A stretch of 52,824 nucleotides of DNA, from IMG/VR virus record IMGVR_UViG_3300031576_000058, positions 1-52,824 of that record. One strand, given 5' to 3'. The position numbers were made by a program, and so were the translations under genes. The stretch comes from a virus. Taxonomy: Duplodnaviria; Caudoviricetes. The notes beneath the pieces were generated by a model. It was not told where the DNA came from, searched no databases, and worked only from the letters and a program-made list of their open reading frames with translations. Numbering within the stretch: position 1 is the first letter of the stretch; each line of letters opens with the position of its first letter. Positions 6,875 to 51,875 of the stretch are shown in pieces.

Positions 6875-7272
6875 CCCCCCCGTTGCTTGATCTGGCTGAC
6901 GATCTCAGCCTCAATCTGGCGGAGCTGCCGCAACCATTCCTGTTCCGGGCCAGTCAGGGCCCTCCGCTTCGCCTCGGCCTCAAGTTGCGCGATCTGCCTT
7001 CTGACCTCCAAGAGATCCCGTTTATCCAGTTTGATCTGCATCTCTGCCACCTCCCAAGCCTTGGCGAAGTGGGCGTATCCTTGGTACGAGACGCCGCTGA
7101 GGACCGAGGCGGAGAGGCTCAGGGCGATGAGGCGCTTGGTCCAGGTGTCGAACCACGCTAAGCTAAGCGTTCGATGGCTTTTTCGTACCATCGCGCCATC
7201 CTCACGGCATAACCGTAGGTTCCGAGCAGGTCGGGCAGTGCTCGTAGCAGCCAGAGCAATACTTTGCCCCAC
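6871..7272 (-). CDS. TM plus coiled-coil protein (true start probably the internal MVRKS)
   Basis: Hydrophobic helix followed by heptads. Confidence 0.55.
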   Translation of the reverse strand: MGQSIALAATSTARPARNLRLCREDGAMVRKSHRTLSLAWFDTWTKRLIALSLSASVLSGVSYQGYAHFAKAWEVAEMQIKLDKRDLLEVRRQIAQLEAEAKRRALTGPEQEWLRQLRQIEAEIVSQIKQRGG

Positions 7273-7321
7273 AACCCTTGCACTCGACCCAGACGACCTC
7301 GTGTATGCTTTGATCGAACAA
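7202..7321 (-). CDS. 39-aa Cys-rich microprotein (3x CxxC)
   Basis: Manual translation MFDQSIHEVVWVECKGCGAKYCSGCYEHCPTCSEPTVMP; TTG directly after the terL stop. Confidence 0.4.
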   Translation of the reverse strand: MFDQSIHEVVWVECKGCGAKYCSGCYEHCPTCSEPTVMP

Positions 7322-8734
7322 CTAGGCCCCCATCCAGGCGAGCGGACCGCCGACTTTCTTGGCCACCTTCTTCACCTTTTTCGGGGGTCGCAGCAGGTCC
7401 GGCAACGGGTAGAGCTTCGCGGCACCCAGCATGATGGCATCAACCGGGTGGCTGTGCAGACCCGACGCGCGTTTGTAGGCCTCGAGGGTCGGCGTCACCC
7501 GTCCCAGAGCATCCTTGGGGTAATGGGCCCCCCCGCGGAGTGCCTTTCGGACGATCTTGCAGTCCGGATCCACGACGAAAAGGGGCTTCCCTCGGATGTT
7601 CCGGCTCAGGACGGCCTTCAGGCTGTCCCGACGCTCCCGCCACTCGATGGCTCCAGCTTCGGGCGAGGCGTTCAGGAGGTCAATCATGGTCTTCACCGCG
7701 CTCCGCTGCGAGTTCGACTGCTCCCTGGTCGCCATGGCCGGATCCACGATGTCCCGAAACTGCCACTCCTCCCGATCGCCAAGGTACTGCGACTCCCACG
7801 GAAGCACCTGGGTCGTAATGAGTTGCTCGAGCCCGATGTTCTCCCCCCGGACCGCTCCCAGGATGTGCCAATGGCCTAGTTTGGTCGGCTGGGACCAAAT
7901 ACACGTAGGGTTCAGTCCCCCGTCCCACGTTCGCACGATCTCCACGCCCCGAATGATCGGGAGGGGCTTCTTGGCCGTATGCCAGTCATCGTTGTATTCG
8001 GGCATGAGCTGCTCCCCCAGGATGATTTGACCCACCTTCCCCTCGACGAGCCGGGAGACGAGGTCGCCACGGCCGATGGCGTAGAGCAAGGCCTTGTCCC
8101 GTTCCCGCTTCTCCCAGGAGATGTGGGGGTTCTCGCCTTTCGGGATCCGGAAGGACTCTGCCTTGAGCTCGCCGACCCTGAGTTCCTGGGCCAATTCCTT
8201 CAGCTTCTCCATGATCTCCATGGTCCAGTGGTCTTCGTCGGGCGGATTCATCGTAATCTGAATCCACGGCTCGACGCCCTTCTGCCGGAGCGAGGTGGCG
8301 CCGACGCCGAGCACTTCGGCTGCCACACCCCCGGAGATGTCAGCGGCCGGCGCCGGCTCCTCAATCCAGAGAGCCCCAATGCCGAAGCCTTGCAGCTTGT
8401 TGATATCCTTGGGGTTGTCCATGCCCATAAAGTAAAAATGCACCAAGCCACCACCGACAATGGCTTCAGTCTTCCCTTCGGCCCACTGGATTTCCAACCC
8501 CTCTTGTTCCTGCTCACGGATCGTCTCCATGACGGTCCGCTGCAGGTTGGCCCAGGTATCTCGAATGACCGCCATCCGGATGGGGAGAAACTGCGGATTG
8601 GTCTGTTTTGCTCGATAGATAGGCTTAAACAGGCCGCCCGTCGTCTTGCCCTCCCCCCGGGGACCCATAAGCAAGGTCAGGAAGGCGTCCGACTGCATGA
8701 AGTCCCGAACCGTCTTTGTAGCGACAAACCTCAC
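7322..8734 (-). CDS. terL: Terminase large subunit
   Basis: Walker A GPRGEGKT, Walker B WIEE, TMNP, RNase H-like WDGG/DPA/HPVDA. Confidence 0.93.
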   Translation of the reverse strand: MRFVATKTVRDFMQSDAFLTLLMGPRGEGKTTGGLFKPIYRAKQTNPQFLPIRMAVIRDTWANLQRTVMETIREQEQEGLEIQWAEGKTEAIVGGGLVHFYFMGMDNPKDINKLQGFGIGALWIEEPAPAADISGGVAAEVLGVGATSLRQKGVEPWIQITMNPPDEDHWTMEIMEKLKELAQELRVGELKAESFRIPKGENPHISWEKRERDKALLYAIGRGDLVSRLVEGKVGQIILGEQLMPEYNDDWHTAKKPLPIIRGVEIVRTWDGGLNPTCIWSQPTKLGHWHILGAVRGENIGLEQLITTQVLPWESQYLGDREEWQFRDIVDPAMATREQSNSQRSAVKTMIDLLNASPEAGAIEWRERRDSLKAVLSRNIRGKPLFVVDPDCKIVRKALRGGAHYPKDALGRVTPTLEAYKRASGLHSHPVDAIMLGAAKLYPLPDLLRPPKKVKKVAKKVGGPLAWMGA

Positions 8735-9039
8735 TCGTCAGGCTCCTCTTTTTCCTTCTGCTCAAAGACGATCTCCACCTTCTGTTTCTCCTTGATATCT
8801 ATAGCCTGCCTTGGCCGCCCCTCTGCCCGATCCCAGACCATCCCAACGTAATGGTGCGCCGTTTTCGGACCGCTGTTGATCCCCCTGACCATCGCACCCA
8901 CCATGTCCTTCATCCGATGCTGAATCAGGTAATCTCTCAAGGCCCTCATGCTGTCCCGGGGGATCTTATCTTTCGAGCCCTTGGGGCGGCCAGCGTTGCC
9001 CTTCTGAAACGGCCGTCCCCTTTGTTTTCTGTCACCCAT
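8731..9039 (-). CDS. terS: Terminase small subunit
   Basis: FQKGNAGRPKGSK and DRAEGRP motifs; ATGA overlap with terL. Confidence 0.8.
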   Translation of the reverse strand: MGDRKQRGRPFQKGNAGRPKGSKDKIPRDSMRALRDYLIQHRMKDMVGAMVRGINSGPKTAHHYVGMVWDRAEGRPRQAIDIKEKQKVEIVFEQKEKEEPDE

Positions 9040-9075: not shown

Positions 9076-9137
9076 AAAACAAAAGGCCCGTACCGACAGG
9101 CTTCCCGATCAGCATGGGCGCTCAACAGAGTCGGCCC
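9076..9137 (-). promoter_or_regulatory. Antiterminator/terminator RNA element, copy 1 (before terS)
   Basis: Sense GGGC-CGA-CTC-tgtt-GAG-c-GCCC...GGGC-cttttgtttt. Confidence 0.75.
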
Positions 9138-9385: not shown

Positions 9386-9646
9386 TCATTCACCCCGCTC
9401 TCCGTCAGTCCCAGCCATCCCCGTCTCCACCCGAGCCACCACCAGATGTTCCTCGCTCCCACACTTCCCACAGACCACGCGCTCCGCTTCGGTCTTCAGG
9501 GCTCTACGCGCTAGATGCCCCCGGATCAGGGACAGGGATATCTTCCCCGTCCATGCCCCGCCTGGCAGGTTAAAGTCCAGCCGGGAGGCCCTTTGCCCGT
9601 TCGGCGGACTCACCGTGATCGAGACCCGCGTGGTCTGCTCCCCCAT
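9386..9646 (-). CDS. Small protein with CxxC
   Basis: 86 aa, RBS GGAGG, WTGKISLSLIRG and CGKC. Confidence 0.6.
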   Translation of the reverse strand: MGEQTTRVSITVSPPNGQRASRLDFNLPGGAWTGKISLSLIRGHLARRALKTEAERVVCGKCGSEEHLVVARVETGMAGTDGERGE

Positions 9647-9653
9647 GGGCCTC

Positions 9654-9980
9654 CTAGTGCCACCAGCCGTCGTGGGCCGGCAACCAGACCCGCCCGCGCG
9701 CCGCCGTCTTCGGGTGGAACACGAACATGCTGACCATCTTGACGCCAGTTTCCCGGGTCACCTCAGGCTCCACCGGCATCGGGATGATGAGCATACTGTC
9801 TCCCCCCCGGAAGGTGAGCCGGGTGACGCTATAGCCTTCGTCGGTTTGCGCCCCAGACTCGACATTGGCGATCTCTTGCCCCACCAAGAACTCGCGGAGG
9901 TCCTTGTTGATCGGGGCCGCATCCCTGACCCGCCATCCCTGGCTCAGGGATCGCATGACCTTCTGGATCAGGTTCGCCAC
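9654..9980 (-). CDS. Hypothetical protein
   Basis: 108 aa, GTG start with GGAGGAG RBS. Confidence 0.6.
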   Translation of the reverse strand: MANLIQKVMRSLSQGWRVRDAAPINKDLREFLVGQEIANVESGAQTDEGYSVTRLTFRGGDSMLIIPMPVEPEVTRETGVKMVSMFVFHPKTAARGRVWLPAHDGWWH

Positions 9981-10562: not shown

Positions 10563-10823
10563 CTACCGTTTGCGTTTCGGCAGCCCCCGCCGGCGCGCGC
10601 CAGCGAACTCCTCGAGTTGCGCCTCGGTCATACCCGTCTTGGTCTTCTTGCCCGCACGTTTCCGGGCCAAGTCTGCGCCCATGAACCCCGCTTGGGCTTG
10701 ACTCACGGCCGGATCCGTCATGGTGATTCGGGCCCCCGGTATGGAGTCTATCCCGAAGGCGCGAAGCTGCTCCCCCGGATCTTCCTTGACCTTCCCCGGG
10801 CGCTCCCATTTGATGCGACCCAT
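10563..10823 (-). CDS. Small basic phage protein
   Basis: QAGFMGADLARKRAG...EAQLEEFA. Confidence 0.6.
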   Translation of the reverse strand: MGRIKWERPGKVKEDPGEQLRAFGIDSIPGARITMTDPAVSQAQAGFMGADLARKRAGKKTKTGMTEAQLEEFAGARRRGLPKRKR

Positions 10824-14747: not shown

Positions 14748-15067
14748 TCATCGCCCCCACCCTTTTAATCTTAATCGCTCCCTAAATGCTCTGTGGCTTC
14801 TACTTAATCGACGCACATCGTTATCGTTTTTAGCTCCATCATACCCCCCCACCACGCAACTCGAAGTTCGGGGTCCGTGTGGGGGTTGTCGTCACGAGAC
14901 TTGCTGTGCATGAAGGCGGCCACCCCATCAACGGAGGCTTGGTCGATGCCGTGCAACCGCCGCACTTCGTCTATAAGGTTTTAAACCATTAGACGTTGAA
15001 GCGGGCGATCATAGAGCAAACCCTCCCGAAGTTCCTGCTCAATCTGCTTAATGTCAGCATCGGTCAT
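14748..15067 (-). pseudogene. Disrupted gene with an Rmf-like motif
   Basis: In-frame TAA at 14981-14983 and apparent frameshift at G7 (14844-14850); G..AF...NP...R.AW..GY. Confidence 0.4.
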
Positions 15068-15825: not shown

Positions 15826-16410
15826 ATTAGGAGGATTGTCAATATAGGGGTATCAGTATTTATTGTCATGACTTATCCCCCTACGCTGCCGGATGCCCCT
15901 GATCCTTCCGTTGCGCCCGCCAGCGGACCCACCGCGCGAGTAGATGGGCGATTAGATAGAACGTCACGGCCCCAACGATGCCGCCAACGGTACCCTCGAT
16001 AACGTGGCCGAGGAGGGTGGAGTCGGTCACGGATTCTGCAAACTCATCGGTAACATTGGTTGCTCTTTCCCACATTTACAACAGACCCATACTATAGTTT
16101 TAGACGCTGCTGAACTACTGGGCACGGATGCCATGCGTGTTTTGCAATAACAATGGAATCCTGTGTCTAGAACCGGGCAAAGTTCAGAATCAGCCACGGC
16201 TTACTCCATCTCATCCACGATATACGGCGGGTCATCCTGAAACGCCTCCTCTGTAAAGCCCCCATCCGCCACGATGGCAAGGAGGGCGAGGATGAAGGCG
16301 AGGACGATCATGGCTTCCTCAGCAATTTAATTGAGTAAACTTTTTGATTGGCGTGAGGGCCTCCACAGGACTCACATTTCATTGCCATCCTCACTTTCAT
16401 TTATAAGGCC

Positions 16411-16549: not shown

Positions 16550-16756
16550 CTAATCCCTTATCCACAGTTCAGCATACTCCTGATCCATGTCGTCGGGCTC
16601 TCGTAGACCGAACTCAGGTCCGTACCAGAAGACGTGTTGACAGCCAGGACACTTCAGAATTACCGCCACACCACCCCTTGGGCCACTCAAGAGCCCTTCT
16701 GTATTTTTACAGAGAGGACACTGAAGTCTATTCATGTTACCAAGCTCCCCCTCCAA
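16550..16756 (-). CDS. Small zinc-ribbon protein
   Basis: CPLC...GPRGG...CPGC; lies between the two structured RNAs. Confidence 0.65.
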   Translation of the reverse strand: MEGELGNMNRLQCPLCKNTEGLLSGPRGGVAVILKCPGCQHVFWYGPEFGLREPDDMDQEYAELWIRD

Positions 16757-16762
16757 TTTTAT

Positions 16763-16946
16763 AATCCGCGCACGGGCCAGCTAGCTAGGCTGACAGTACG
16801 TCTATCCCGCTTCAGCAGCCTGATAGGCCAAGCTACTATCTGGGGCCGTGCGGACCTGCCATTACTGGCTCATCCTCACTCCTTACGGTGCCCGTAGCAC
16901 CCCAACGGATTTGACAATCCTCGGCTCACGCCGCCGTGCGCGGATT
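16763..16946 (-). ncRNA. Cloverleaf-like structured RNA, copy 2 (expanded)
   Basis: 13-bp closing stem; first 20 nt identical to copy 1; CGTG/CACG, CTATC/GATAG and GTCAGC/GCTGGC arms. Confidence 0.55.
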
Positions 16947-23913: not shown

Positions 23914-23961
23914 TCCGCTCACTATACTAGCCCTGATTTTGCGCGTGTCAAGAACTTTTTT
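23914..23961 (-). promoter_or_regulatory. Leftward early promoter/operator
   Basis: AAAAAAGTTCTTGACACG...TAGTATAGTGAGCGGA; mirrored at 24722-24769. Confidence 0.7.
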
Positions 23962-24721: not shown

Positions 24722-24769
24722 AAAAAAGTTCTTGACACGATCTCGTCTGGTGCTCATACTATGAGCGGA
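24722..24769 (+). promoter_or_regulatory. Rightward early promoter/operator
   Basis: TTGACA-17 bp-CATACT with upstream A-tract. Confidence 0.75.
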
Positions 24770-29560: not shown

Positions 29561-32380
29561 ATGAGCCGGATCATCCTTGGCAAGTCCTGGGAGTCACAGC
29601 CGAAGAACATCTCCCTAGACCTCGATCTGTTGCTCCGGACCAGGATGCTTATCCAGGCCAACTCAGGAGGAGGGAAGAGTTATCTCCTCCGCCGCCTCGC
29701 CGAGCAGCTCTTCGGGAAGGTCCCAGTCCTCATCGTGGACCCCGAAGGCGAGTTCGCCACCCTCCGAGAAAAATATGGGTATGTCCTAGCTGGGAAAGGC
29801 GGGGAGACCCCGGCCGATCCTCGGTCGGCTGGGTTACTGGCCCAAAGGCTTCTCGAGCTCCAGGCCTCGGCGGTATGCGACCTCTACGAGATGAAGTTGT
29901 CTGACCGGCACCGATGGGTCCGGACCTTCTTGGAAGCGGTGATCGACGCCCCGAAGAAGCTCTGGCGGCCAACCGTGGTGGTCGTGGACGAGGCCCACAC
30001 ATTTTGCATGGACCCAGAAACAGAAATTCTGACAAGTTCCGGATGGAGAGGGATAACCGAAGTAGAAGTTGGGGATCGAGTTGTTGCCTTCGATCCAACG
30101 AGTGAATTATACCGAGAAGAACCTATTCGTCGGATCATAGTTCAAAATCACTCTGGGCCGATGGTAGGACTCACAAGCGATGGGATTGATGCGCTTGTTA
30201 CTCCAGACCACCGAGTAGTTTTGCGTCGAATGCAGCGGGCACAATATCAGGGTCGAAAAGAAAGCGTCAAGAAAAGGCGACCCAAATACCTCACCTTATA
30301 TCCATGGACTTTTTGTCACGCCTCTTCGGTTCCTCATCACGCATATATTCCAATCGGTGGAGGACCGGATGGTCCCGGTCTAGCAAGACTTTCAACGGAT
30401 CTAAGCCGCCTATTGGGCTGGGTTATTACGGATGGGAGCTTTGTGGGGTCGTGCGGCGGCAAATACTTGCGCTATCTTTCGATTTCCCAATCGACCGCGA
30501 CTCTCAAAGCAGGAAGAAGGATGATTGCTGAGATGCAATCCTTGCTCAGTCGATTTGGCTCGCATTCGGTATATTCACGGCCAGAAAGGGAAAGTGTGCG
30601 TCCTGATCGCACCGTGAGACACTCTCAGAGCAAAGAATTCTATCTCGGAGAGCGATTATCGCGTCTGGTGATGGGCTGGCTTGGTCCAGACATTCACCGA
30701 ATTCCCCGAGTCATTCTAAGCCAAGGGTCTAAGCATCAATTGCGAGCCCTATACCAAGGCCTCTTAGAGGGGGACGGAACCTCATACATGGGACGCTGGA
30801 CGACTTTTTATCCTGGGAAAAATGAGGGATTGGCTGACGATTTTCAGGAACTTGCAACAAGACTAGGAATCAGTACGACCAAGCGTTTTGTGTGGAGCAT
30901 AGGCCAATGGAGGGTCCTTATAAGCAAGCGACGTCACCACTATGTCCGGAAACCGAATTCCCATGTTTACTCTGGAATCGTCTGGGATATTACTGTTCCT
31001 TCAGGTGCTTTCGTAGCGAGGCGGCGAGGAAAGGTCTTTGTAACTGGAAATTCCCCCGAGAAAGGCCATGGGGAGTCGGAGGCGGCCGACGCCATGATCG
31101 GTCTGGCCACCCGGGGGAGGAAAAGGGGCTTCGCGGCCGTGTTCGCTACCCAGCGATTGGGGAAGCTCCGGAAGGACGTGGCGGCCGAGCTCCTCAACGT
31201 CTTGATCGGCCAGACCTTCATCGACATTGACCGGAAGCGGGCAGCCGAGGCCCTCGGTATCCCCCCGAACGAGCAGCGGCGCTTCTTCGACCAGATCAAG
31301 GTGATGGAGCCAGGAACATTCTGGGCCCTGGGCCGAGCCGTAGCGATCGAGCGGGTCCTCCTGAAGGTCGGGTCGGTGGAAACGACCCACCCGGAGCCAG
31401 GCTCCACAAAACATGCTGCGGCGCCCCCACCGCCCCCAGAGAAGGTCAAGGCCCTGCTGCCCAAGCTGCAGGATCTCCCAAAGGAGGCGGAGGATAAGGC
31501 GAGGACGGTAGCCGAGTTCCGGGCGGAGATCGGACAGTTGAAGCGGGAGCTGGCGGCGGCGAAACATACTGCGACTACGGTTCCACCATTGCAGCGTGAG
31601 CCACAAATCAGGGTAAAAGAAGTCAGGGTTCCGATGCTGAAGAAAGGCGATGTGGGCCGGATTGAGAAGGCCATTGCGTTCTTGGCAAAGGTTACAGATC
31701 GGATGGCCCGGGCTCAACAGGTTGTCGTGACCGAGTTGGGTCTGATGCGCGATGCGTTCAAGAAAGAGGCTGTAAAGCCCTATACAATCAGTGTGCCTCC
31801 ACCCACGAAACCAATACTTGACCAGCGCAGCCTCCACTTCAAGCAGCACGTTCGCAATGTGGTGGAAGGTGCGCGGCAACCACTGCGCATAGGTGATGAC
31901 TTCCACCCAAGAACCGTGGCTGGTTCCCTTCCCAGGGGAGAACAGATCAGCCTGACCGCCGTGGCGCAGTACCCAGAGGGCGTGGATCGTCAGCAGCTCT
32001 CCATTCTCACCGGCTACAAGCGGTCCAGCCGGGACTCCTACGTTCAGCGGCTCAAGGACCGAGGATTGGTGGGGGTCCGGGGTAACCGGATCATGGCCAC
32101 GGATGAGGGCCTCCTAGCATTGGGGTCAGATTTCGAGCCCCTTCCCACTGGCGAAGCTCTCCGGGACTACTGGATCCAGAAACTCCCCCAGGGGGAAAAG
32201 GCAGTCTTGCAGGTCTTATTGAAGGCCTATCCGGATTCGGTCGATCGGGATGCCATATGTGAGATGACCCAGTACCGCCGCTCCAGCCGTGATGCCTACC
32301 TGCAAAGACTCCGGGCCCGCCAACTCGTATCGGATGACGGGCCCAGAAGGGTTAAGGCGTCCCCGCTGCTTTTCGACTAG
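29561..32380 (+). CDS. HerA/FtsK-like (DUF87) ATPase with intein and two C-terminal wHTH repeats
   Basis: ANSGGGKS, DPEGEF, DEAH, RGRKRG, ATQR. Confidence 0.85.
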   Translation: MSRIILGKSWESQPKNISLDLDLLLRTRMLIQANSGGGKSYLLRRLAEQLFGKVPVLIVDPEGEFATLREKYGYVLAGKGGETPADPRSAGLLAQRLLELQASAVCDLYEMKLSDRHRWVRTFLEAVIDAPKKLWRPTVVVVDEAHTFCMDPETEILTSSGWRGITEVEVGDRVVAFDPTSELYREEPIRRIIVQNHSGPMVGLTSDGIDALVTPDHRVVLRRMQRAQYQGRKESVKKRRPKYLTLYPWTFCHASSVPHHAYIPIGGGPDGPGLARLSTDLSRLLGWVITDGSFVGSCGGKYLRYLSISQSTATLKAGRRMIAEMQSLLSRFGSHSVYSRPERESVRPDRTVRHSQSKEFYLGERLSRLVMGWLGPDIHRIPRVILSQGSKHQLRALYQGLLEGDGTSYMGRWTTFYPGKNEGLADDFQELATRLGISTTKRFVWSIGQWRVLISKRRHHYVRKPNSHVYSGIVWDITVPSGAFVARRRGKVFVTGNSPEKGHGESEAADAMIGLATRGRKRGFAAVFATQRLGKLRKDVAAELLNVLIGQTFIDIDRKRAAEALGIPPNEQRRFFDQIKVMEPGTFWALGRAVAIERVLLKVGSVETTHPEPGSTKHAAAPPPPPEKVKALLPKLQDLPKEAEDKARTVAEFRAEIGQLKRELAAAKHTATTVPPLQREPQIRVKEVRVPMLKKGDVGRIEKAIAFLAKVTDRMARAQQVVVTELGLMRDAFKKEAVKPYTISVPPPTKPILDQRSLHFKQHVRNVVEGARQPLRIGDDFHPRTVAGSLPRGEQISLTAVAQYPEGVDRQQLSILTGYKRSSRDSYVQRLKDRGLVGVRGNRIMATDEGLLALGSDFEPLPTGEALRDYWIQKLPQGEKAVLQVLLKAYPDSVDRDAICEMTQYRRSSRDAYLQRLRARQLVSDDGPRRVKASPLLFD
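30005..31051 (+). mobile_element. Intein with LAGLIDADG homing endonuclease (349 aa)
   Basis: CMDPETEILT start, VTPDH block B, LLGWVITDG and LLEGDG, VWDITV, VTGN|S; lower GC. Confidence 0.92.
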
Positions 32381-33286: not shown

Positions 33287-33619
33287 CTATGTGGTCGCCC
33301 CCGTCAAGGCCTTGATGCCACCGTTACTGAAGAACTTCAGGGCACCCCGAGCACCTACATAGGTCCAGATCGCATAGAGCGCCTCTAGGGGTACTCCAGG
33401 GAACAGAATCGGTACCCCGGTAGATGCCAGCGTGACCCAGAACTCGGTGGACATGATCCCGGCCTTGGCGTCTCCGCCGATCTTGGCGAACCCCCTGGAG
33501 CCGATGTACGTAATGATCCCCAGGAAGGCCTCCTTCGGCGCCTCGGGGAACACGTAGGTCAGGATCCCCCCGCCAACGGCCAACCAAAACTCTGTCGTTT
33601 TCCAGCCATCCCTTAGCAT
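33287..33619 (-). CDS. Holin-like protein with internal duplication
   Basis: GWKTTEFW...YIGSRG repeated as GIMSTEFW...YVGARG. Confidence 0.65.
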   Translation of the reverse strand: MLRDGWKTTEFWLAVGGGILTYVFPEAPKEAFLGIITYIGSRGFAKIGGDAKAGIMSTEFWVTLASTGVPILFPGVPLEALYAIWTYVGARGALKFFSNGGIKALTGATT

Positions 33620-33642: not shown

Positions 33643-33703
33643 AAAAAAAACCCGCGACGAGGGTGGAATTACCCTCAATCGCGGGCTCTCTACGAGTCGG
33701 CCC
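33643..33703 (-). promoter_or_regulatory. Antiterminator/terminator RNA element, copy 2 (before holin)
   Basis: GGGC-CGA-CTC-gta-GAG-a-GCCC...GGG-T8; TTGACA at 33746-33741. Confidence 0.8.
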
Positions 33704-33742
33704 GAAATCTAGGTTACTATATACCAGTATATATCGAGAATG

Positions 33743-36700
33743 TCAAGGCCTTGCTGGCATCATCTTCCTGAAGACCTTGGGTCCCTCATGGATGCGCCGT
33801 TCCGCCCTCGGGATCTGGGATTCACGGAGTCGTGGTCTCAGACGGTTTCGGATATCCCGGCTGGTGATCGGAAACTCGGGATAGAGGGCGTTCCATCGGT
33901 CAATGTCGTCCTTGCCTGGGCTGGTCTCCAAGACCACATCGGCCCCTTCGAGGCGCTGTTGCGCCCGGAGCGACACGACCCGGTCGATGACCGCATCCCG
34001 CCGCTTTCTGACCTCGACATAGGCTGACAGGATCATGTCCTGCTCCGAGGCCGTCAAGGACCGGAAGCCCGCCATGTTCAGGAGTACGTCCTTCAGATCC
34101 CCCTTGAACTTGAGCATCCCCTTGGGGTCCCGGAAGTCGTAGTCCCCCTCCCAGATTTGTCTGAGGCCTTCCGTCCAGCGGAGCGCCGGTGCCCGCTGTC
34201 TTAGAGCGGATATCAGACGTTTGGCTGGCTCTGGGACCACCCCCTTCTCCTCTCCAAGCGCAGCCTCTCCGCCAGCCAAGGCTAGGCTCCCCAGTGGTCC
34301 CAAGGCCACGTTGCCGATCGCCTCCGGGACGCTCTGGCCTCGCGGCACGTCCACCATCTGGACCGAGTAGGAGAAGTCGATGCCCAGCAGTCCCGGGAGG
34401 CCGTAGGCGATCAGGTTGGCGATCGTCTCCCCGTACTCTTCCTTGATGCGGTTGTAGAGTTCCAGGGTGATGTAGGCCCCGCCCGCAATGGCGATGAGGG
34501 GATTCAGTAGGCCCTTCATCCCACCAATGCCAATGTTGGCTCCCAGCCATTTGCCCGCCCCGACAAAATCCTTGTCGGCCAACAGGTCCGCGATCAGCTC
34601 GAGGTTCTTGATCTGAAAGCGCCGGAACTGGAAGATCGTGGATTTGACCGGAGCGGTCAGGCCTGTGGACATGGCCCGATAGAGCGCCCGTGGCTGGTCC
34701 GTCCGCAGTCCAAGGAACTGACTGTAGATGTTCCCGCGGAGGAAGGCGTATTCGGCTGCCTGGGCATCTTCCAGTCCCATCTTTCGCGCCTTCAGGTACA
34801 TGGTCAGGAAGGCGACCTCTTGGTTGAAGGTCTCAGGGGCTAAGCCCCGCAGTTGCTCGCGGAACCTCGCCATCTTGAATCTCTTCAATGGCCCCGCCTC
34901 TCCGACAAACTTCCCGCCGGCGAGGAACCGGACCCCGTGCTTCTCCAGAAGATCCTTGCCGATCAGCTCTTCGCCGCTCTCAAGGGTCACCTTCCCCAGG
35001 TAGAGCCGCCGACCATTCACAAACTCCCTCGTGCTGACGATCGGCCAAAGCGTCTGGAACGTCTGGAGGCGGTTCAGGAAGTGGAATCGCGGGCTCAGGT
35101 TCAGGAAGAGATACGCGGACAGAGATTTCGCGCGGTTGGTCCACCGTTCCAAGGCGAACGGCCGGTGGAAATGGCTAAGACCTGGGATCCGCTCCAAGAG
35201 GTTGTCGAGCATCTGCGAGGTCTGGCTCTTGTAGCCCCACAGGATATTCAGGTTTGCCTCAAGCTCATCGGCCAGCGTCGATCGCCCCGATTTTCGCACC
35301 TTGTCGATCAGGGGTTGGACGGCTCGCCTCGCGTCGGTGACGTGAATCCACCGGGTCAGGCCATGGTTGTAGATACCCAAGACCCACTCGAGGTCTTGGC
35401 TGAATCCCGGATAGCCCTCCCGGTGCCGCAGCGACCCCCACCACTTCTTCTTGCCCTCCTTGGTGCCGATGACTCCCTTAAAGGCCCAGGACACATCTTC
35501 GGCCCCAATATCCATGGCGTCGGCGATCCGGTTAATGACCATCCACCGCCTCGGCCTCGACACCCGGACTACGTCAGGGTTCACAAACTGCCGCTGATCC
35601 ACCACATACATCTCCGCCGTCCGCTCGGGGTTGCTGGCATGGTCCTCGTTGATTCTCTTCATAGCCTCGTACCGAGTCCGGGCCGTCCCGATAAAGGCCA
35701 TCCCCTCGTCGGCCTTGACGAAGATCCGGAAGTCGCCGGGGAAGATATGGGGCAAATACTTGTCGATCCCCCACTCGTCCGGGATCATGCGCTGCAGCTC
35801 TTCGGTCGTCTCCTTGGCGACCCGTTTCCGGACCTCCTCGAGCTGTTCCGCCGTCCGACGATGTTTGCCTTCCGGAATCGGGATCTCCTCCCGGACCTTC
35901 GTGTCGATCCGGTCCTCGACCGCGGGCCTCAGATCTTCGCGCATCCGCTCGATGATGAGCTGCCGGTCCGCATCGAACTTCTCCCGGAAATACCGGGCCG
36001 CCTCCTTGGTCTCCTGGGAGATGTCGGTCCGGGCCTCGATCGCCTCAATATCCTTACCCTCGAAGATGTCCCAAAAGACCTCCCCGGTCTTCCCGAAGTC
36101 GGCCTTCGGGATCCGCCCTGTGGCCTCCAGGTCGGTCTCCATCCGGCGACCGAACGCGATGCGCTGGTTGATCTCGCCCAGGTTCAAGGCCCGGATCGCG
36201 GCGGCCGCTTCTGGACCGTAGCGCCGAAGCACGTTCGAGGGGGTGCCGATCATCGAGAGCCAGCCGTAGTCCTTCATCGGCTTCTGGATGATGACCTTGG
36301 GTCCCTGGCCGGAGACCCGCCGCTCCTCTGCCCTGCCCTCGCGCTGCCATTCTTGGAGCCGCTCAGCCCATTCGTCTTGGGGTTCCTCACCGAAGTCGGC
36401 TTTCGGCTCAGAGACGCGGTAGGCAGGCCGAGCCCCCTCTGCCGCCCGCAGCCTCAGACGCTCGCCCTCCCTGAGCCTTCCCAGTGTATAGCCACCTTCA
36501 AGCACGCCGATGCCGTGATCCAGGATAACCCCCCCGTCGATGTACCTCTGGGCCGCCCGCTTGATTGCCTCTGCTTGTTCGCCCTTGTATTCCGGATAGA
36601 AGCTCAAGGCCGATGTAGCCCCGTATTCTCGTTGCCGAGCCCGCACATAGTCCACTAACTCTCTCCCCCGGAGGAACTTGGCCACCGGCACATCCTCGAT

Positions 36701-39700
36701 CGCCCGTGAAGTAATACCGGAGCGGTATATAAGCGAAACGTAGCCCTCGGGTGTCTTGAGCTGCTGCCCGATGCGGACGAGGTGCTGCCCGTCCTCCACC
36801 CGGACCCCGATGAGATCGTGGGCCAGCTCCGGCACGAAGAATTGCGCCTCGCCCGCAGGAATCCGATGGGCTTTTTCGGCTACCCCTTTCGGAGTGGTCC
36901 TGAGAACGGTATAGACGCCAGAATCGATGATGACGTGGCCTTTCATGCCGGGGAGCATTGCACTAAAGGTCTCCGTCAACTGAACATCGCTATCAGAGGC
37001 AGAGGTCATCCCGCTCGGGTGGTTGTGGAGCATCCAGTACCCATCCGCCCCGAGCCGCTCCATCCGTCGCTTCATGCCCTCGATGGTTCTCGCAACATGC
37101 GTCTCCCTGGGCCCCCTTTGCAGAAAAGCCTCAGCCGACCCCGGCATCCGTGACGTAATACCCTCATGGGCGACGATCTTTCCTTCCTTGACATAGAAGA
37201 TTCGTAGCGTCTCGAATTGCGGGTTGCGGAACACCTGGGCCAGCCCTGCGAGGTCCTGGGCCGTGTGGACCGTCTGGCCCCGGAGGTCCACCCGTCCCTT
37301 TTGGTACAGCTCCCGGGTAATTCCGATGCCGAGGATTCTGGCGCCGGCCGCACCGGGAATCCCACGGGGCAGCTTTCCGGAGACCGTAGAGGCCCCTTGG
37401 ACCGACTGCTCCACGTCCGCGATGGCCTCCTGCGCTCGGACTAGATCGGATTCGGGGGAGTCGGGCCGTCTTTGGTAGAACGGCTTGGGTAGCGGCTCCT
37501 CCACGCGAGTCGGTGTCGGCGCCTTGACCTCGGGTGCCTTCGGGGGGAACCGCTCCAAGAGCCGCCCGATTTCCTGCTCCGGGATATGGAAGAAGTTGCC
37601 GGCTGGAGAGTATTTGGCCCCATGGCGGAGGAGCTGGTCGCGCTGGGCCATCTTGGCGTTCTCGATCTTGATAAGGCCATCCTGGCGCTGCCGCAGCTCG
37701 TACTGGTCCGCCCCCTCCAGTGGCACACGATCGCCAGCCTTCAGGGCCTCCATGACCTGCTCTGGCGTCTCCAGCCGCTCGCGGCCCAGCTTGTGACCGA
37801 AGTTCTCCGCCAGCATCGGCATGGTCCCGCGCCTAATCTCGAGGCCGGAGATTTGCCGGTCACCGGCATTGAAGGTGACGTAGCTCCGCTTCGGCACCTC
37901 TCCAGCCGCACCGTATTGTCCAACCACCCTGGCCAAAGGTAAATACCTAGCAATCCGATCCATGTGGGGAGTGATGAGGCCCTGGAGGATCCCAAATCGG
38001 TGTCCGCTCTCGTCCTTGACTTCGTGGAGGACCAGTTGTGGTTGGAGTTCCGTGGACCGGACGACCTCGCCCCGGTACTTCCGGGTCTTGGCAAACTCCT
38101 CCGCCTCCTCCTGCTCTGCCAGCAACGCCTTTCGCTTCTCCCAAAATCTATCGAACGCTTCGTTCGACGCTTCGAGCGGCATGAACTGGAGATCCAGCAA
38201 GAAATCTTTCAAGCTGGCCACCGTGGGGTCTTTCGGCAGATCCCGGTATTCGATCATGCCCTCGCGGGTGATGCCTTTCGCTTCCATGGGGGAAGGAGTC
38301 GGAAGTGATGGTGGTGGAGCCTCTGGCAATTCCGGCGTTACGGCCTTTTCTATCTTGCCCAATGCCACCTTCATCCAGTCAGGTTGATCTACTAGAACGT
38401 GCCGAGGTGCTTCGTATGGGGTGGCCTCTCCAGGAGTGACCATCCCCTGCTGCACATCTTTCCACTGTGGGGCGTTGAACACCTCGCCTTGTGGCAGATT
38501 TTGCACTAGCTCCATAATCTGATCCCGGTAGCCTTGAGCGATGCGTCCAATAGCACTCCTCGGGATCATCATTCTGTCTGCCATTCCCTCAAAGCCCGTG
38601 TCTATCCCTGGCTCACCGGCAGCTTTCTTTCTCAACCGGGAAGTGGCTGAGAAGAGGTCCTTGTGGTTGGCGTCCGGGAAAATCACTCGGACTGATCCCT
38701 TCTTCCCACGACCGATGAAGATGCTTCTCGCCGGGACGGCCTCAATAGCCTTGGTCGGAGGTGCGAGTTCCGGCTGTACCGCTGTCGGTGGCCTCTCGAA
38801 CAGTGGCGTCTCCTCGACGGGACGCACCTCGGCACCTTCGGGGGCACGGATCGGCTCTCTTGGGACCTCGCGGGGCGGGGCAAAGGTCATCTGGCCGGGG
38901 GTGAACGGCTCTTCGCGGATGGTAGGTGCTACTGGAGAGACCACGGGCTGAGGAACCTCTCCCGCTCTTATTTCCTCAGCCGACGGAATGTTGAGCTTTG
39001 ATCTCACGGACCGGATCATGGTCCGTGCGTCCGAGAGACCAATGTTGTTAAAGCCAAACTCTGGCTTCATCTGATCGAATACTTGGGCAGCGACAAGACC
39101 CTGCCTACTCAACTCAGAGATTCTGTCGGAGAGTCCCAGCCTTTGAGAAAGGGCAAACTGTCTGTCAATCTCCTCTTGGATATAATCTGGAACGGACTTC
39201 CTTGTGGCTTCCTCTGGTATTTGGGCAGGAGCGGGGGCTACTGCTGGTGCCACAGGAGCCGCCGGTGGCGGCGTCACCAACGCCTCGAGCCGCTCCGCCT
39301 CTTGGTCTCGCGCCAACTCCTCGAGCGCTCCCGAGAACCGCTCAAAGCCCACTTCGGTCGGCTCAAGGCCGGTCTCGACGTACATATCCCTTGCCTCGTC
39401 GGCAGTGATCCCAGCCTTCAGCCGATCAAGTATTTCCAGGTAGAGCGGATTCTCCTTGTCGCGGCGGATCGCCGCCACGATCTGAGACGGGCTGGCGGCA
39501 ATGCCTTGGAGCTCTGGGAAGAGTGACTTGAAGCCACCGACTCTCCGGTATTCTCCTGGCTCCCCCACCAGCTTGCCGGTCGGTGTGGCCTCAGAGACTT
39601 CCTGGAGGGCATCGGCAAGGCCAGTAGCCTTCCCCTCAGCAATCACGTCGATTGGACTCTTTTCCACAGCCTTTTCCACTGGTGGGGCTGCAGGAGGAGC

Positions 39701-41416
39701 GACGACGGGTGTGGGAGCGGCTTTTGCCTCAACCGCAGTCGGAGCGACACTGAGCACCTGGGCGCCCTTGGGGGTCCGGACGAGTTCGGGCGGCCTGGCC
39801 TCCCTTCCCTCCTGTTGCGAAAAGGACACAGCGGAGGTCAAATTGTCAAAGTGGACCTTGGCCCGTCCATCTGCCCAGACCACCTGGTAGGATTGTCCTC
39901 GTGGAGGCCTCTCAGGTAGGGCTGTAGGCGCAGGGGTAGGTGTTGGGGCGGCTTCTGGCCTGATCGCCTCAGGAGCGGCTGGTGGGCGCACAGGAGGAGC
40001 AGGTTTGGGGGTCGGCTCAGGCGGATCGGCAGGCCTCGGAGGGGCTTCAGTCGGAGTTGGCCCTATGGCTGTCCGGATTCCGGGCGACGAGGCCTCTTGG
40101 GCCGTGGCAGCAGATTGGGTGGCGAATGTCGCCTTCTGCAAGAGTGCATCGTTGAAGTTCTTGAGCTTCTCGGGATCCTTGGCGAGGTCCTGTCGGATGC
40201 GCTTGATGGTGTGGAGCTTGTTTTCTTGGGCCCACACCTCCTCGACCAGATCAGCAACCGTGCGTTCAGGGCTTTTGGACAGCTTCGCCCGCCATGTCTT
40301 GACTCCCTCACGGATCACGCTTGGGCGTGGCCCCTCCACCTGACGCCCAAAGAGCCCCAGCATCCCGATATGGAAGTCCCTCTCGAATGACTCGGCGTCC
40401 CGCTGCGAGTAGCCCATGTCGAGCAGGATGTGCTTGGCCGTGGCTCCCACCGCGATAAACGGCGAGGCCATGAGCCGCGTCCCTAGATCAAGCGCCTGCC
40501 AGGCCCAGATGAACGGTGTCCATCCGGCCCGCCGGATCCGGTAGGTAAACTCGTCCTCGTTCGGATAGCGGGGCATCTTGTTCGGGTCGATCGTGAAGGC
40601 TGGGCTTTCGGCAATGACTTGCAGGGTCTCGCGGATACCGCGGAGGCCCGGGCCGGCCGCTTCGGGCGGGATCTCGACCCCGGGCACCCCTTCAACGGCA
40701 CCGACGACATATGGCACTCCACGAGGTTCTTCCTGGGGTGCTGGAATAACCGTCCTTGTTCCACGACCCGGGGTCGGTGGAATCCCGAATGGATAGGCGG
40801 CCCGGAGGTCCTCCTCAGCCGCCAGATCAGGGGTTGGCGCCGGCACCATGCCGGGGATCCGCCCCATTTCTTCCCCGGTGGGGAGCGAGGCTATGCCGCG
40901 CTTTCCTGCCTCAAGCTGTCGGCCTACAGCCGCTTTGATGCGATCAAGGACAGATGGCTTCGGCGCGTCGGCGAAGGCCTGCTTGATAGAGTCTGTAGTC
41001 GTTTTCTTTTGGGACGGTTCGGTGAAGGCTTTGCGGATCTGATCGGACGTAATCTTTTTGGCTACGGTTCCTTCGGCCGCCTCTGCCTCTCTGGGCGAGA
41101 GGAGATTCAACATGTCCTTCATCCACGGCAGCTTGAATCGCTCTGGTTGGGGTTCGGGCTCAAAGGATGGGATGGGAAGATCGGCGCCTTCGTACTCTTT
41201 TATATTTGATGGGATAGTGAAGGCTGGAGGCTCGGCCTGCTGTTCGCCGCCGTTGCCACCATTGGGCTCAAGGAGGGTAAGGGGAGGCTCAGTGCTTGAA
41301 CGGGGTAATGCTTTGTAGCCAGGACCCAGAGAGCGCCGAAACTTCTCATAGAGAGCTTCCTCACCATGCTCCTCCGAGAAGAGGGACCGGAGGTGATCGG
41401 CGGTAATCTTGGCCAT
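33743..41416 (-). CDS. Giant DNA-ejection/polyvalent protein with JAB/RadC-like domain
   Basis: 2557 aa, last tail-module gene; E...HNHPSG...S..D motif; Pro/Ala-rich linker. Confidence 0.8.
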   Translation of the reverse strand: MAKITADHLRSLFSEEHGEEALYEKFRRSLGPGYKALPRSSTEPPLTLLEPNGGNGGEQQAEPPAFTIPSNIKEYEGADLPIPSFEPEPQPERFKLPWMKDMLNLLSPREAEAAEGTVAKKITSDQIRKAFTEPSQKKTTTDSIKQAFADAPKPSVLDRIKAAVGRQLEAGKRGIASLPTGEEMGRIPGMVPAPTPDLAAEEDLRAAYPFGIPPTPGRGTRTVIPAPQEEPRGVPYVVGAVEGVPGVEIPPEAAGPGLRGIRETLQVIAESPAFTIDPNKMPRYPNEDEFTYRIRRAGWTPFIWAWQALDLGTRLMASPFIAVGATAKHILLDMGYSQRDAESFERDFHIGMLGLFGRQVEGPRPSVIREGVKTWRAKLSKSPERTVADLVEEVWAQENKLHTIKRIRQDLAKDPEKLKNFNDALLQKATFATQSAATAQEASSPGIRTAIGPTPTEAPPRPADPPEPTPKPAPPVRPPAAPEAIRPEAAPTPTPAPTALPERPPRGQSYQVVWADGRAKVHFDNLTSAVSFSQQEGREARPPELVRTPKGAQVLSVAPTAVEAKAAPTPVVAPPAAPPVEKAVEKSPIDVIAEGKATGLADALQEVSEATPTGKLVGEPGEYRRVGGFKSLFPELQGIAASPSQIVAAIRRDKENPLYLEILDRLKAGITADEARDMYVETGLEPTEVGFERFSGALEELARDQEAERLEALVTPPPAAPVAPAVAPAPAQIPEEATRKSVPDYIQEEIDRQFALSQRLGLSDRISELSRQGLVAAQVFDQMKPEFGFNNIGLSDARTMIRSVRSKLNIPSAEEIRAGEVPQPVVSPVAPTIREEPFTPGQMTFAPPREVPREPIRAPEGAEVRPVEETPLFERPPTAVQPELAPPTKAIEAVPARSIFIGRGKKGSVRVIFPDANHKDLFSATSRLRKKAAGEPGIDTGFEGMADRMMIPRSAIGRIAQGYRDQIMELVQNLPQGEVFNAPQWKDVQQGMVTPGEATPYEAPRHVLVDQPDWMKVALGKIEKAVTPELPEAPPPSLPTPSPMEAKGITREGMIEYRDLPKDPTVASLKDFLLDLQFMPLEASNEAFDRFWEKRKALLAEQEEAEEFAKTRKYRGEVVRSTELQPQLVLHEVKDESGHRFGILQGLITPHMDRIARYLPLARVVGQYGAAGEVPKRSYVTFNAGDRQISGLEIRRGTMPMLAENFGHKLGRERLETPEQVMEALKAGDRVPLEGADQYELRQRQDGLIKIENAKMAQRDQLLRHGAKYSPAGNFFHIPEQEIGRLLERFPPKAPEVKAPTPTRVEEPLPKPFYQRRPDSPESDLVRAQEAIADVEQSVQGASTVSGKLPRGIPGAAGARILGIGITRELYQKGRVDLRGQTVHTAQDLAGLAQVFRNPQFETLRIFYVKEGKIVAHEGITSRMPGSAEAFLQRGPRETHVARTIEGMKRRMERLGADGYWMLHNHPSGMTSASDSDVQLTETFSAMLPGMKGHVIIDSGVYTVLRTTPKGVAEKAHRIPAGEAQFFVPELAHDLIGVRVEDGQHLVRIGQQLKTPEGYVSLIYRSGITSRAIEDVPVAKFLRGRELVDYVRARQREYGATSALSFYPEYKGEQAEAIKRAAQRYIDGGVILDHGIGVLEGGYTLGRLREGERLRLRAAEGARPAYRVSEPKADFGEEPQDEWAERLQEWQREGRAEERRVSGQGPKVIIQKPMKDYGWLSMIGTPSNVLRRYGPEAAAAIRALNLGEINQRIAFGRRMETDLEATGRIPKADFGKTGEVFWDIFEGKDIEAIEARTDISQETKEAARYFREKFDADRQLIIERMREDLRPAVEDRIDTKVREEIPIPEGKHRRTAEQLEEVRKRVAKETTEELQRMIPDEWGIDKYLPHIFPGDFRIFVKADEGMAFIGTARTRYEAMKRINEDHASNPERTAEMYVVDQRQFVNPDVVRVSRPRRWMVINRIADAMDIGAEDVSWAFKGVIGTKEGKKKWWGSLRHREGYPGFSQDLEWVLGIYNHGLTRWIHVTDARRAVQPLIDKVRKSGRSTLADELEANLNILWGYKSQTSQMLDNLLERIPGLSHFHRPFALERWTNRAKSLSAYLFLNLSPRFHFLNRLQTFQTLWPIVSTREFVNGRRLYLGKVTLESGEELIGKDLLEKHGVRFLAGGKFVGEAGPLKRFKMARFREQLRGLAPETFNQEVAFLTMYLKARKMGLEDAQAAEYAFLRGNIYSQFLGLRTDQPRALYRAMSTGLTAPVKSTIFQFRRFQIKNLELIADLLADKDFVGAGKWLGANIGIGGMKGLLNPLIAIAGGAYITLELYNRIKEEYGETIANLIAYGLPGLLGIDFSYSVQMVDVPRGQSVPEAIGNVALGPLGSLALAGGEAALGEEKGVVPEPAKRLISALRQRAPALRWTEGLRQIWEGDYDFRDPKGMLKFKGDLKDVLLNMAGFRSLTASEQDMILSAYVEVRKRRDAVIDRVVSLRAQQRLEGADVVLETSPGKDDIDRWNALYPEFPITSRDIRNRLRPRLRESQIPRAERRIHEGPKVFRKMMPARP

Positions 41417-42788: not shown

Positions 42789-43859
42789 CTATGCCCTGGG
42801 GGCGTACACGGTATTGTACCCTGGCGTCCCGCTATAATAGGACCCGCCGTAGCTCGGAGCGTAGCTGGGGAGGCCAGCCGAAAGCCCCCCCCCAAGAGCA
42901 CCGCCAAGAGCAGCGCCAAGCGGACCACCAAGCGCGGCGCCTCCTAGGGTAAGCAGGCCGCTCATTAGGCCACCCTGAGCCTGGGATTGGGCATTCTGGG
43001 CCTGGATCTGCGCGTTCATCACGGCGAGGTTCTGGGCGGCCCGTTGCTGATTCACGTTCGCCTGAAGCGATCGGTCGTAGTTATATTCCTGCGTGAGTTG
43101 CCCGAACTGGGGTGGGGTTTGGATATAATCCAGGCCCAACGACCCGAGACCACCGGCGAACTGATACGGGGAGACGTTCGGGACCCCGGCCAGTAAGCCT
43201 CGCCGGAGACCCAAGGTCCGCTCGGCGGCCGGAGAGAGGGTATATCCCACCCGGGCCGCCCGCTCGAGCTCGTACTGACCCGAGAGGTATTTCTCTTGCC
43301 CCTGGCGCTGGAGCATGTCCTGAAAGGCTGTGCTGTAGGGGCTGGAGAGCTGGTAGCCTGAGCCCAAGGCGCGGCGGAAACGTTCATCGAGGTCGCGCTG
43401 CTCCTGCAGATGACGCTGCGCCATCGCCGGATCGGTCGGGAGACCCCCTTCGAGGGCGGTCCGATACCTCTGCTGAAATCCCCGGCCGATCTCGAGCTGC
43501 CGTGCCGCCTCTTCGCCAGCGTAGTCCTCTGGGCTCAGGCCGGTGGCCCGCTGGAAGGCCGTCCGTTCCTGTTCGGTGCCCGCGAGACTCTCGGCCTGGA
43601 GGCCGCGGAGTCCGGTGAAGAGGCCGAGTTCGGACACCCCCGCCTGGGCCAAGAGGTCAGACAGGTCGATCCCGAGGGTTTCCTCGATCGCCTTTCTGGT
43701 GGCCTCTTGCTCGGACTGGAGCTTCCGGGCCCGCTCCAGGTTCTCCTGGTAGAGTTCCCGCCCGCCAGCCCGAACCTCTGTAAGCTCTGTGCTTGGAGGC
43801 GGCGCAGGAGGAACCGGCGGTAGACTAGGGATCTTGGGCTTTGTGAAGAAGCTGCTCAT
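42789..43859 (-). CDS. Putative ejection (pilot) protein
   Basis: Q/A-rich with Gly-zipper GGAALGGPLGAALGG. Confidence 0.65.
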   Translation of the reverse strand: MSSFFTKPKIPSLPPVPPAPPPSTELTEVRAGGRELYQENLERARKLQSEQEATRKAIEETLGIDLSDLLAQAGVSELGLFTGLRGLQAESLAGTEQERTAFQRATGLSPEDYAGEEAARQLEIGRGFQQRYRTALEGGLPTDPAMAQRHLQEQRDLDERFRRALGSGYQLSSPYSTAFQDMLQRQGQEKYLSGQYELERAARVGYTLSPAAERTLGLRRGLLAGVPNVSPYQFAGGLGSLGLDYIQTPPQFGQLTQEYNYDRSLQANVNQQRAAQNLAVMNAQIQAQNAQSQAQGGLMSGLLTLGGAALGGPLGAALGGALGGGLSAGLPSYAPSYGGSYYSGTPGYNTVYAPRA

Positions 43860-51767: not shown

Positions 51768-51818
51768 AAAACGAAATGCCCACCGGGTTTCCCCGATGGG
51801 CACTCTAAGAGTCGGCCC
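51768..51818 (-). promoter_or_regulatory. Antiterminator/terminator RNA element, copy 3 (before scaffold)
   Basis: GGGC-CGA-CTC-tta-GAG-t-GCCC...GGGC-atttcgtttt; TTGACA at 51866-51861. Confidence 0.8.
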
Positions 51819-51875
51819 CTCTAGTGATCTACCCTTATGTTCGCCACACGATCAGGCGATTGTCAACAAAAATCT

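Follow-up and report, generated by a model that had tools for sequence, protein, structure and literature searches.

Genome organisation of the phage

The window, by which we mean the whole stretch of 52,824 bp that was analysed, is an IMG/VR virus record with 60% GC. A P22-like portal ORF of 712 codons with one stop is in frame across the contig ends, running on the minus strand from 1190 to 1 and then from 52824 to 51876. Although the record is labelled as linear and 68% complete, the genome is closed, i.e. complete circular or circularly permuted, and the CheckV completeness of 68% is too low because the portal ORF runs on across both contig ends. This is a temperate phage, whose genes include those for an integrase, an HTH regulator, a replication initiator, a DnaB-like helicase and a methyltransferase.

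Nearly all genes relevant to this study lie on the minus strand and are described here in the direction of transcription. Early, replication and unknown genes (about 24 kb to 9.4 kb) lead up to site 1, which is followed by a putative small terminase (terS, 102 aa, 8731-9039), the large terminase (terL, 7322-8734; PHROG 2, PF03237), eleven mostly uncharacterised genes and the portal (PF16510). Then comes site 3, after which a putative scaffold of 299 aa (50735-51634), the capsid gene (49645-50724; PF13252) and the tail genes are found, including one for a 2557-aa protein (33743-41416). Site 2 lies next and precedes a putative lysis block with a 110-aa putative holin made of two repeated hydrophobic halves (33287-33619) and two lipoprotein-like ORFs. 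The gene context given in the preliminary description holds for the capsid, which has a family match as have terL and the portal, whereas the names terS, scaffold and holin are taken from position and composition alone, none of the three having a family match.

Some other genes of the window are worth recording. The 2557-aa protein, encoded last in the tail module, lacks a PHROG match, and its RadC-like JAB match is sub-threshold only; the provirus G001, described below, has a stretch that is 37% identical to it. A HerA/DUF87-type ATPase of 939 aa (29561-32380, plus strand) contains an inserted LAGLIDADG domain (residues 394-444) that resembles the insertion of an intein or a homing endonuclease. 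A 53-aa ORF (14804-14965, minus strand) matches the ribosome modulation factor just below threshold, with 26.6 bits against a cut-off of 27.9.

A repeated element heads three gene modules

The sequence GGGCCGACTC-N3-4-GAG-N-GCCC occurs in exactly three copies in the window, all on the minus and thus coding strand. Site 1 (9116-9137), before terS and terL, reads GGGCCGACTC-TGTT-GAG-C-GCCC, with the segments GGGC, CGA, CTC, TGTT, GAG, C and GCCC. Site 2 (33683-33703), before the putative lysis block, has the loop GTA and reads GGGCCGACTC-GTA-GAG-A-GCCC, and site 3 (51798-51818), before the scaffold and capsid, has the loop TTA and reads GGGCCGACTC-TTA-GAG-T-GCCC. As RNA, each copy is predicted to fold into a hairpin, here called hairpin A, with an outer GGGC/GCCC stem, an inner CUC/GAG stem and CGA opposite one unpaired base.

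The pattern GGGCCGACTCN{3,5}GAGNGCCC gave three matches in the window and none in any of 100 dinucleotide-preserving shuffles. The three sites lie on the coding strand exactly where the preliminary description had put them, and its account of the sequences is right in all details. The bare 10-mer with one mismatch is not enriched (8 observed, 9.5 expected), so only the three exact copies stand out. A covariance model, a check that the preliminary description had proposed, was built from five copies and scores sites 1 to 3 at 35.7-40.4 bits, while the next match in the window reaches 14.1 bits. With three copies confined to one genome one might think of a chance repeat or of a recent duplication without function. 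Such an origin is very improbable: the shuffles already contradict it, the flanks and terminator interiors of the three window copies are unrelated while the motif is exact, and orthologues and structural variants are present in four other genomes.

Several other roles for the element were considered and rejected. Downstream of GCCC an ATG begins an ORF of 13 codons in the window, whereas in the relatives L017 and L020 the frame is another one, which speaks against leader-peptide attenuation. The distance from the upstream stop codon to the element varies from 3 to 249 nt, unlike what ribosome-coupled control would need. The stem is too short for an RNase III site, the three copies are too far apart for a pac site, and by reading, the GA lacks the preceding 3-nt bulge in the right register of a K-turn.

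The element runs into intrinsic terminators

Every motif of the window runs into an intrinsic terminator whose 5' arm begins with the GCCC of the motif (RNAfold, three of three sites), and the terminator hairpins close with GGGC, GGGT or GGGC before a T tract. At site 1 (terminator 9076-9119, minus strand) the hairpin 9119-9086 starts from the element's GCCC and is followed by CTTTTGTTTT (9085-9076). The stem at site 2 (33643-33686) extends from GCCC (33686-33683) to GGG (33653-33651) and is followed by T8 (33650-33643); this is the strongest minus-strand candidate of the terminator scan with -30.2 kcal/mol. At site 3 (51768-51801) the hairpin reaches from GCCC (51801-51798) to GGGC (51781-51778) and ATTTCGTTTT follows. 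In the terminator scan the three sites rank 1st, 3rd and 8th among 63 minus-strand candidates, the others being mostly long imperfect folds within genes. A GC-rich hairpin with a U tract on the transcribed strand is thus predicted at all three sites by RNAfold and by the terminator scan, in agreement with the preliminary description. We take the terminators to be real, in view of the two-sided changes in 3 of 15 pairs among the site 1 orthologues described below. The three U tracts of the window are followed by the G-rich boxes AGGGAAG, GGAGGGAGG and GAGGGAAC.

The same GCCC cannot pair in hairpin A and in the terminator at once. The folding energies are -6.8 to -9.2 kcal/mol for hairpin A and -20.8 to -34.8 kcal/mol for the full terminator; the residual hairpin that is left without GCCC has -11.4 to -17.4 kcal/mol and ends at least 4 nt short of the U tract. 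A stem detached from its U tract should be disabled as an intrinsic terminator. These energies and distances bear out the two mutually exclusive pairings that the preliminary description had proposed. Since the full terminator is far stronger than hairpin A, termination would be the default, and hairpin A would need a stabiliser in order to prevail.

The same anatomy can also be read without any switch. The element would then be the 5' flank of a compound terminator, or serve the 3'-end processing or stability of the upstream mRNA, while the late genes would be transcribed from separate promoters or by leaky read-through. Terminators are common at the borders of phage modules, and GAG-N-GCCC can pair with the U tract and so lengthen the stem of the terminator. 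We consider this reading quite unlikely. A terminator can do without any specific sequence, yet conservation in the motif is highest in its 5' half GGGCCGACTC, outside the terminator. Moreover, the 23-130 nt that separate the U tract from the following start codon hold no promoter-like sequence, by reading, at any of the three sites.

Relatives carrying the element

Among GenBank phages no relative was found by megablast with 25 kb or by blastn with site 1, and the best terL relatives in tblastn have at most 27% identity. The contigs of metagenomes and of GTDB genomes were scanned with the exact W-type pattern only, i.e. the motif as in the window plus a terminator. The metagenome scan gave seven loci, of which four are chance matches in coding sequence; the others, L017, L021 and L020, carry the element before a terS homologue, and L017 and L021 are overlapping contigs of one phage. 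In GTDB genomes there were four loci, all of them chance matches in coding sequence (Methanoregulaceae and Syntrophobacteraceae).

The loops of the L017 and L020 copies are TTTG and TAAGT, and the terminator interiors are altered with compensation: 3 of 15 pairs in the terminators of these site 1 orthologues have changes on both sides. Thus loops and terminator interiors vary around a fixed motif in the window, L017 and L020, as the preliminary description had stated for the window. The terS proteins of L017/L021 and L020 are only 31-36% identical to that of the window while the 17 fixed motif positions are identical, an identity that was partly forced by the exact search pattern. The motif is constrained far more strongly than its surroundings, because it is identical in phages whose terS is that divergent.

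Homologues of the capsid and terL provided an unbiased route to relatives and led to G002 and G001. G002 is a complete phage of 58.7 kb with terminal repeats and 72% GC, compared with 60% in the window; identity with the window phage is 51% for terL and 71% for the capsid. At positions equivalent to those in the window it has two copies of the form GGGC-AGA-CGCG(T)-ATC/AACCA-(A)CGCG-C-GCCC, one before terS and one at the portal/scaffold junction, and both are followed by a hairpin reusing CGCGCGCCC and then by a U tract. In the provirus G001 the sequence GGGC-GGGA-CGC-ATTGAC-GCG-C-GCCC stands before terS, with a strong hairpin next to it that has no U tract. No element was found at the portal/scaffold junction of G001 or in the capsid relatives G003 and L011.

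In total, eight copies are known from five genomes (three in the window, one in L017/L021, one in L020, two in G002 and one in G001). All eight stand in front of packaging, head or lysis modules and are oriented with transcription, all contain GGGC, GA and GCCC, and in each of them the next hairpin takes the GCCC of the element, or more, as its 5' arm. The architecture is therefore kept in the relatives. The earlier statement that the element gates every late module fits the genome of the window, but the relatives have only one or two copies.

The IMG/VR collection was searched in several ways. Among the 80 loci of a search based on the terL alignment, the element was found only at G002 (L032, with the descriptor) and at G001 (L034, by reading), the G001 copy lying outside the descriptor because of its 4-nt internal loop. 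The model R1 did not recover the G-type copies. The exact motif was found at five IMG/VR loci, four of which lie in GC-rich sequence without a terminator and look like chance matches; the fifth, L008, has the exact 21-mer of site 2 (28 bits) with no terminator at its GCCC. Variant patterns gave 12 loci, the only real ones being the two of G002. With further variant patterns, a terminator starting at GCCC was seen in none of 36 loci in one set, and the single real one of 15 in another was G001 itself.

In L020 (1129-3132, minus strand) the element and terS lead directly into a homologue of the window gene at 42789-43859, with no terL there. Upstream there is an HTH_17 gene (AlpA/excisionase-like) and a large ORF (7092-8975, plus strand) that appears DNA methyltransferase-like by reading. 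L020 may be a satellite, or else a deleted prophage, and would have kept the late-gene signal of its helper.

Two further sequences were noticed in the high-GC relatives G001 and G002. Just past the U tracts of both G002 sites (L122 and L118) stands a common TTTCGGGGAGGC, which adjoins the start codon at one of the two only. Upstream of the element, CCTAG-NN-TAGACTCG is conserved between G001 (2470-2498) and G002 (53790-53751), and the TAGACT in this region could be the -10 box of a high-GC host.

RNA fold or DNA site

That GGGC, GA and GCCC never vary would be expected of a protein-DNA site just as much as of an RNA. Between lineages the inner stem differs, but it stays paired, and the general architecture and the GA are kept. 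In the alignment of seven copies all 49 of 49 cells are paired; six of the seven pairs are invariant, and the one compensatory pair (U-A to G-C) is owed to a single genome. Of 500 control shuffles, 27 have a covariation score at least as high as the observed one. The G001 copy was left out of this count since MAFFT displaces it by one base; for this copy RNAfold gives a slightly different hairpin as the optimal fold. An RNA structure is compatible with these alignments and mildly supported by them, short of proof.

We therefore weighed the possibility that a regulator of the phage or host, such as a late activator, a repressor or a stoperator-type roadblock, binds the element as double-stranded DNA, its place beside terminators being accidental and RNA folding irrelevant. 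The element is an imperfect inverted repeat in which, apart from GGGC, GA and GCCC in all eight copies, 17 positions are invariant in the five W-type copies, with the single compensatory pair as the covariation seen, and the phage is temperate and has HTH regulators. However, the spacer between the arms varies from 3 to 6 nt among the copies while the 3-versus-1 asymmetry of the internal loop is kept. Such variable spacing would be tolerated by a hairpin loop but not by a dimeric DNA site. In all eight copies the element has the same orientation and overlaps the terminator arm. An activator site would have nothing to activate, because the region between the element and the gene is a GC-rich hairpin without a -10-like box, and a roadblock right ahead of a strong terminator would be redundant. 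Altogether a DNA site is an unlikely explanation of the element, and a hairpin acting as RNA accounts better for the spacing and the overlap.

Promoter-like sequences upstream of the sites

TTGACA occurs ten times on the minus strand of the 52.8 kb, and two of these boxes precede sites 2 and 3, at distances of 43 and 48 nt respectively. From this density we estimate the chance of finding TTGACA near two of the three sites at about 7 in 10,000. Upstream of site 2, a promoter-like sequence (33718-33746, minus strand) was recognised by reading, with TTGACA (33746-33741), a spacer of 17 nt and TATATA (33723-33718). The TGA stop codon of the gene for the 2557-aa protein falls within this TTGACA. 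The automatic promoter scan omitted it, as that scan needs a T at position 6 of the second hexamer. The -35-like TTGACA of site 3 (51861-51866), 48 nt upstream, has a poor -10 at 17-18 nt (CGAACA or GAACAT), and site 1 and its orthologues have no convincing promoter upstream. Judged by reading, the -10 ahead of the terminators is thus good at site 2 and poor at site 3, and site 1 has none.

Sites 2 and 3 look like promoter-leader-terminator units. Because of the TTGACA boxes 43-48 nt upstream, which the preliminary description had overlooked, they may be promoter-proximal attenuators, nearer to the PR'-tR' layout of lambda than to an internal gate. With sigma-70-like -35 boxes of their own, both sites would probably make short terminated leader RNAs until a factor appears, by analogy with PR'-tR'. 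At site 1, a gate for transcripts that read through from the operon upstream is more likely.

Counted from the predicted transcription starts of sites 2 and 3, hairpin A would begin after about 8-13 nt. A promoter-proximal position is also that of nut and put sites, and it could mean that the element is a loading site at which a factor or the RNA itself makes the polymerase resistant to terminators in a processive manner. The overlap with the terminator would then be incidental or merely helpful. Three serial gates in one direction would be redundant for a processive mechanism, whereas three separate gates with one terminator each are what one would expect of a local one. The terminator overlap, kept in eight of eight copies, also speaks against a processive factor. 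The loop, which is the recognised part in boxB, is free in length and sequence here. On balance we regard processive loading as rather unlikely, and we return to the local hairpin as the preferred reading.

Elsewhere in the window, divergent TTGACA promoters at 23924-23951 (minus strand) and 24732-24760 (plus strand) flank the region of the HTH gene and are probably early promoters. A second promoter-like pair (15841-15869, minus strand, and 16737-16765, plus strand) lies in a stretch of low third-position GC.

Search for a protein that reads the element

The preliminary description had recognised no Q, N or late sigma factor in this genome. In agreement with this, six-frame searches of the whole window gave no match at E <= 1 to the Q families PF03589 and PF06530 and no sigma region 2, and around 70 window ORFs compared with PHROGs and/or Pfam contain no RNA polymerase and no known antiterminator. 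The CAT RNA-binding domain (PF03123) had no match at E <= 1 in the six frames either. Neither the 939-aa HerA-like ATPase with its LAGLIDADG domain nor the 2557-aa protein contains an RNA-polymerase domain. Reading the motif as a promoter of a phage RNA polymerase is also defeated by the terminator that would follow right after the promoter start.

The proteins common to all five element-bearing genomes are only terS, terL and a 356-aa protein of the virion region. Only two early or middle proteins of the window, of 108 and 86 aa, have homologues in G001 or G002, which are the other two long genomes with the element. The 108-aa ORF (9654-9980, minus strand) has homologues upstream of terS in both and is a candidate reader by co-occurrence alone. 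Its family has one further relative, its AF2 model has a pLDDT of 66, and a Foldseek search of this model against the PDB gave nothing at E <= 0.001.

The 86-aa ORF (9386-9646, minus strand), the last gene before site 1, is a candidate by position alone. Its homologue in G002 ends 33 nt ahead of the G002 element, and G001 has no homologue. This family (the window protein and P0002-P0015, about 65-100 aa), with 15 representatives at E <= 0.001 among 1.84 billion proteins, has an invariant WTG, a G and CxxC(G). Against Pfam it gives weak zinc-ribbon hints only (Com, E 0.027, two of ten members), its HNH-like lead in the Atlas (0.91) shares few features, and its AF2 pLDDT is 65. Both families are thus rare and unannotated, with low-confidence predicted folds and no informative match. 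Homologues of either protein are absent from the compared parts of L017 and L020.

Small Arg-rich proteins, which would suit a processive antiterminator, exist as well. On the minus strands of L017 (862-1245) and L020 (2746-3132) an ORF of 127-128 aa, 67% identical between the two and with an Arg-rich C-terminal tail (RRKTVRKRRRRG), stops only 3 nt short of the element. No family match and no homologue in the window were found for it. The window ORF 10563-10823 also encodes a small Arg-rich protein, with a GARRRGLPKRKR tail. That these Arg-rich ORFs are not homologous between the genomes speaks against processive loading. No single candidate fits all element-bearing genomes, and a host factor or lineage-specific readers are possible.

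Proposed mechanism and significance

The motif is real and does not belong to a described RNA family, and most simply it is explained as a factor-dependent antiterminator/terminator switch that heads late modules. In this proposal each site would be a cis-acting RNA, in a leader or between modules, that can adopt either of two mutually exclusive folds. The strong terminator hairpin would form by default, and RNA polymerase would stop ahead of the late block. A sequence-specific factor would bind hairpin A, which combines an outer GGGC/GCCC stem with an internal loop NGA on the 5' side, 3-5 bp of inner stem and a loop of free sequence, and would hold it so that GCCC is kept from the terminator. 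With GCCC withheld, the residual stem would end at least 4 nt before the U tract and the polymerase would read through into terS-terL-portal, scaffold-capsid-tail or the lysis genes. For such a hairpin competing with the terminator under the control of a factor, with RAT-like logic outside the RAT family, we put the chances at about even. That the element acts as RNA, that a factor exists and which one it is, and that the sites are regulated in time, we infer, because the mechanism is read from the anatomy of the sites and from thin comparative evidence.

A broader proposal is possible but doubtful, namely that a third type of late-gene switch stands beside the DNA-bound Q and the processive N. 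Here a small protein or a host factor would read a bulged hairpin of 21-25 nt (GGGC, NGA, stem, N and GCCC) and locally disarm a dedicated terminator for each late module, and satellites or defective relatives such as L020 would carry the element ahead of their own terS so as to fire on the signal of their helper.

If true, a local antiterminator read as RNA at every late module would be a distinct design of late control. The very small cis element could then serve synthetic biology as a compact and orthogonal transcription gate, and would be a sequence handle for late-gene boundaries and regulators in uncultured phages. With eight copies found in five genomes the family is rare, so its general importance is limited unless wider searches add copies.

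Comparison with known systems

Late-gene control is known in detail for few model phages, where it works through Q, N, put, late sigma factors and activators. No Rfam 15 family matches the window at the gathering score, and at E <= 5 the surroundings of the three sites gave one unrelated match (PK-IAV, 18.9 bits). The papers covered by a full-text search of the literature, as far as their text was accessible, contain no account of the motif or of a RAT-like late switch in phages, and the matches to the 10-mer seen there are unrelated primers. This fits the preliminary description, which did not recognise the element as a described motif.

The element differs from the antitermination signals of other phages in its conserved parts. 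As in lambda N-nut (boxB) and HK022 put, a small hairpin of a temperate phage is proposed here as antitermination signal. However, the boxB loop is conserved and recognised, whereas the loops of the five W-type copies, 3-5 nt in length, all differ from one another (TGTT, GTA, TTA, TTTG and TAAGT), and it is the stem and the GA bulge that are conserved. The sites also lie ahead of late rather than early genes. A resemblance to boxA is seen at site 3 only (CGACUCUUA), and a boxA reading was rejected. HK022 put consists of two adjacent stem-loops of about 70 nt in total that act without a protein; our element is a single hairpin of 21-25 nt with no conserved second stem upstream. In ANTAR targets two hexaloop hairpins are found, the second of which overlaps the terminator, whereas the element is a single hairpin whose loop measures 3-6 nt and has no conserved bases.

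Short, oriented and exact repeats between genes are also known from temperate actinobacteriophages, i.e. the stoperators of cluster A and the start-associated sequences of cluster K. These occur in tens of copies, are DNA sites or have no defined function, and have no tie to terminators, unlike the element described here, which has one to three copies per genome, each fused to a terminator.

Two other systems are similar in placement or in logic. In placement the element resembles PR'-qut-tR' of lambda, a late-gene gate in which a promoter stands closely ahead of a terminator, after the early and replication genes and before the terminase genes; at sites 2 and 3 the TTGACA boxes may provide such a promoter. 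Lambda Q attaches to promoter DNA and works processively from this one site, while our element is itself transcribed, overlaps the terminator and is present in three copies in a genome where no Q family was found. In logic it resembles the RAT/CAT systems of BglG, SacY and LicT, where a hairpin overlaps the 5' arm of a terminator, termination is the default and a factor stabilises the hairpin and thereby allows read-through. The RAT logic named in the preliminary description stands as far as the overlap is concerned, since GCCC is common to both folds in eight of eight copies. It does not extend to the RAT family, as no CAT_RBD domain is encoded by the phage. The RAT consensus is about 29 nt long and has two internal loops, whereas the element has 21-25 nt, one 3x1 internal loop and, by reading, an unrelated sequence, and it stands in three copies ahead of the late genes of a phage instead of sugar operons. 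What it has in common with RAT is a short imperfect hairpin with an internal loop, the 3' part of which overlaps the 5' arm of the terminator. We therefore describe the element as outside both families, with a logic like that of RAT/BglG and a placement like that of PR'-tR'.
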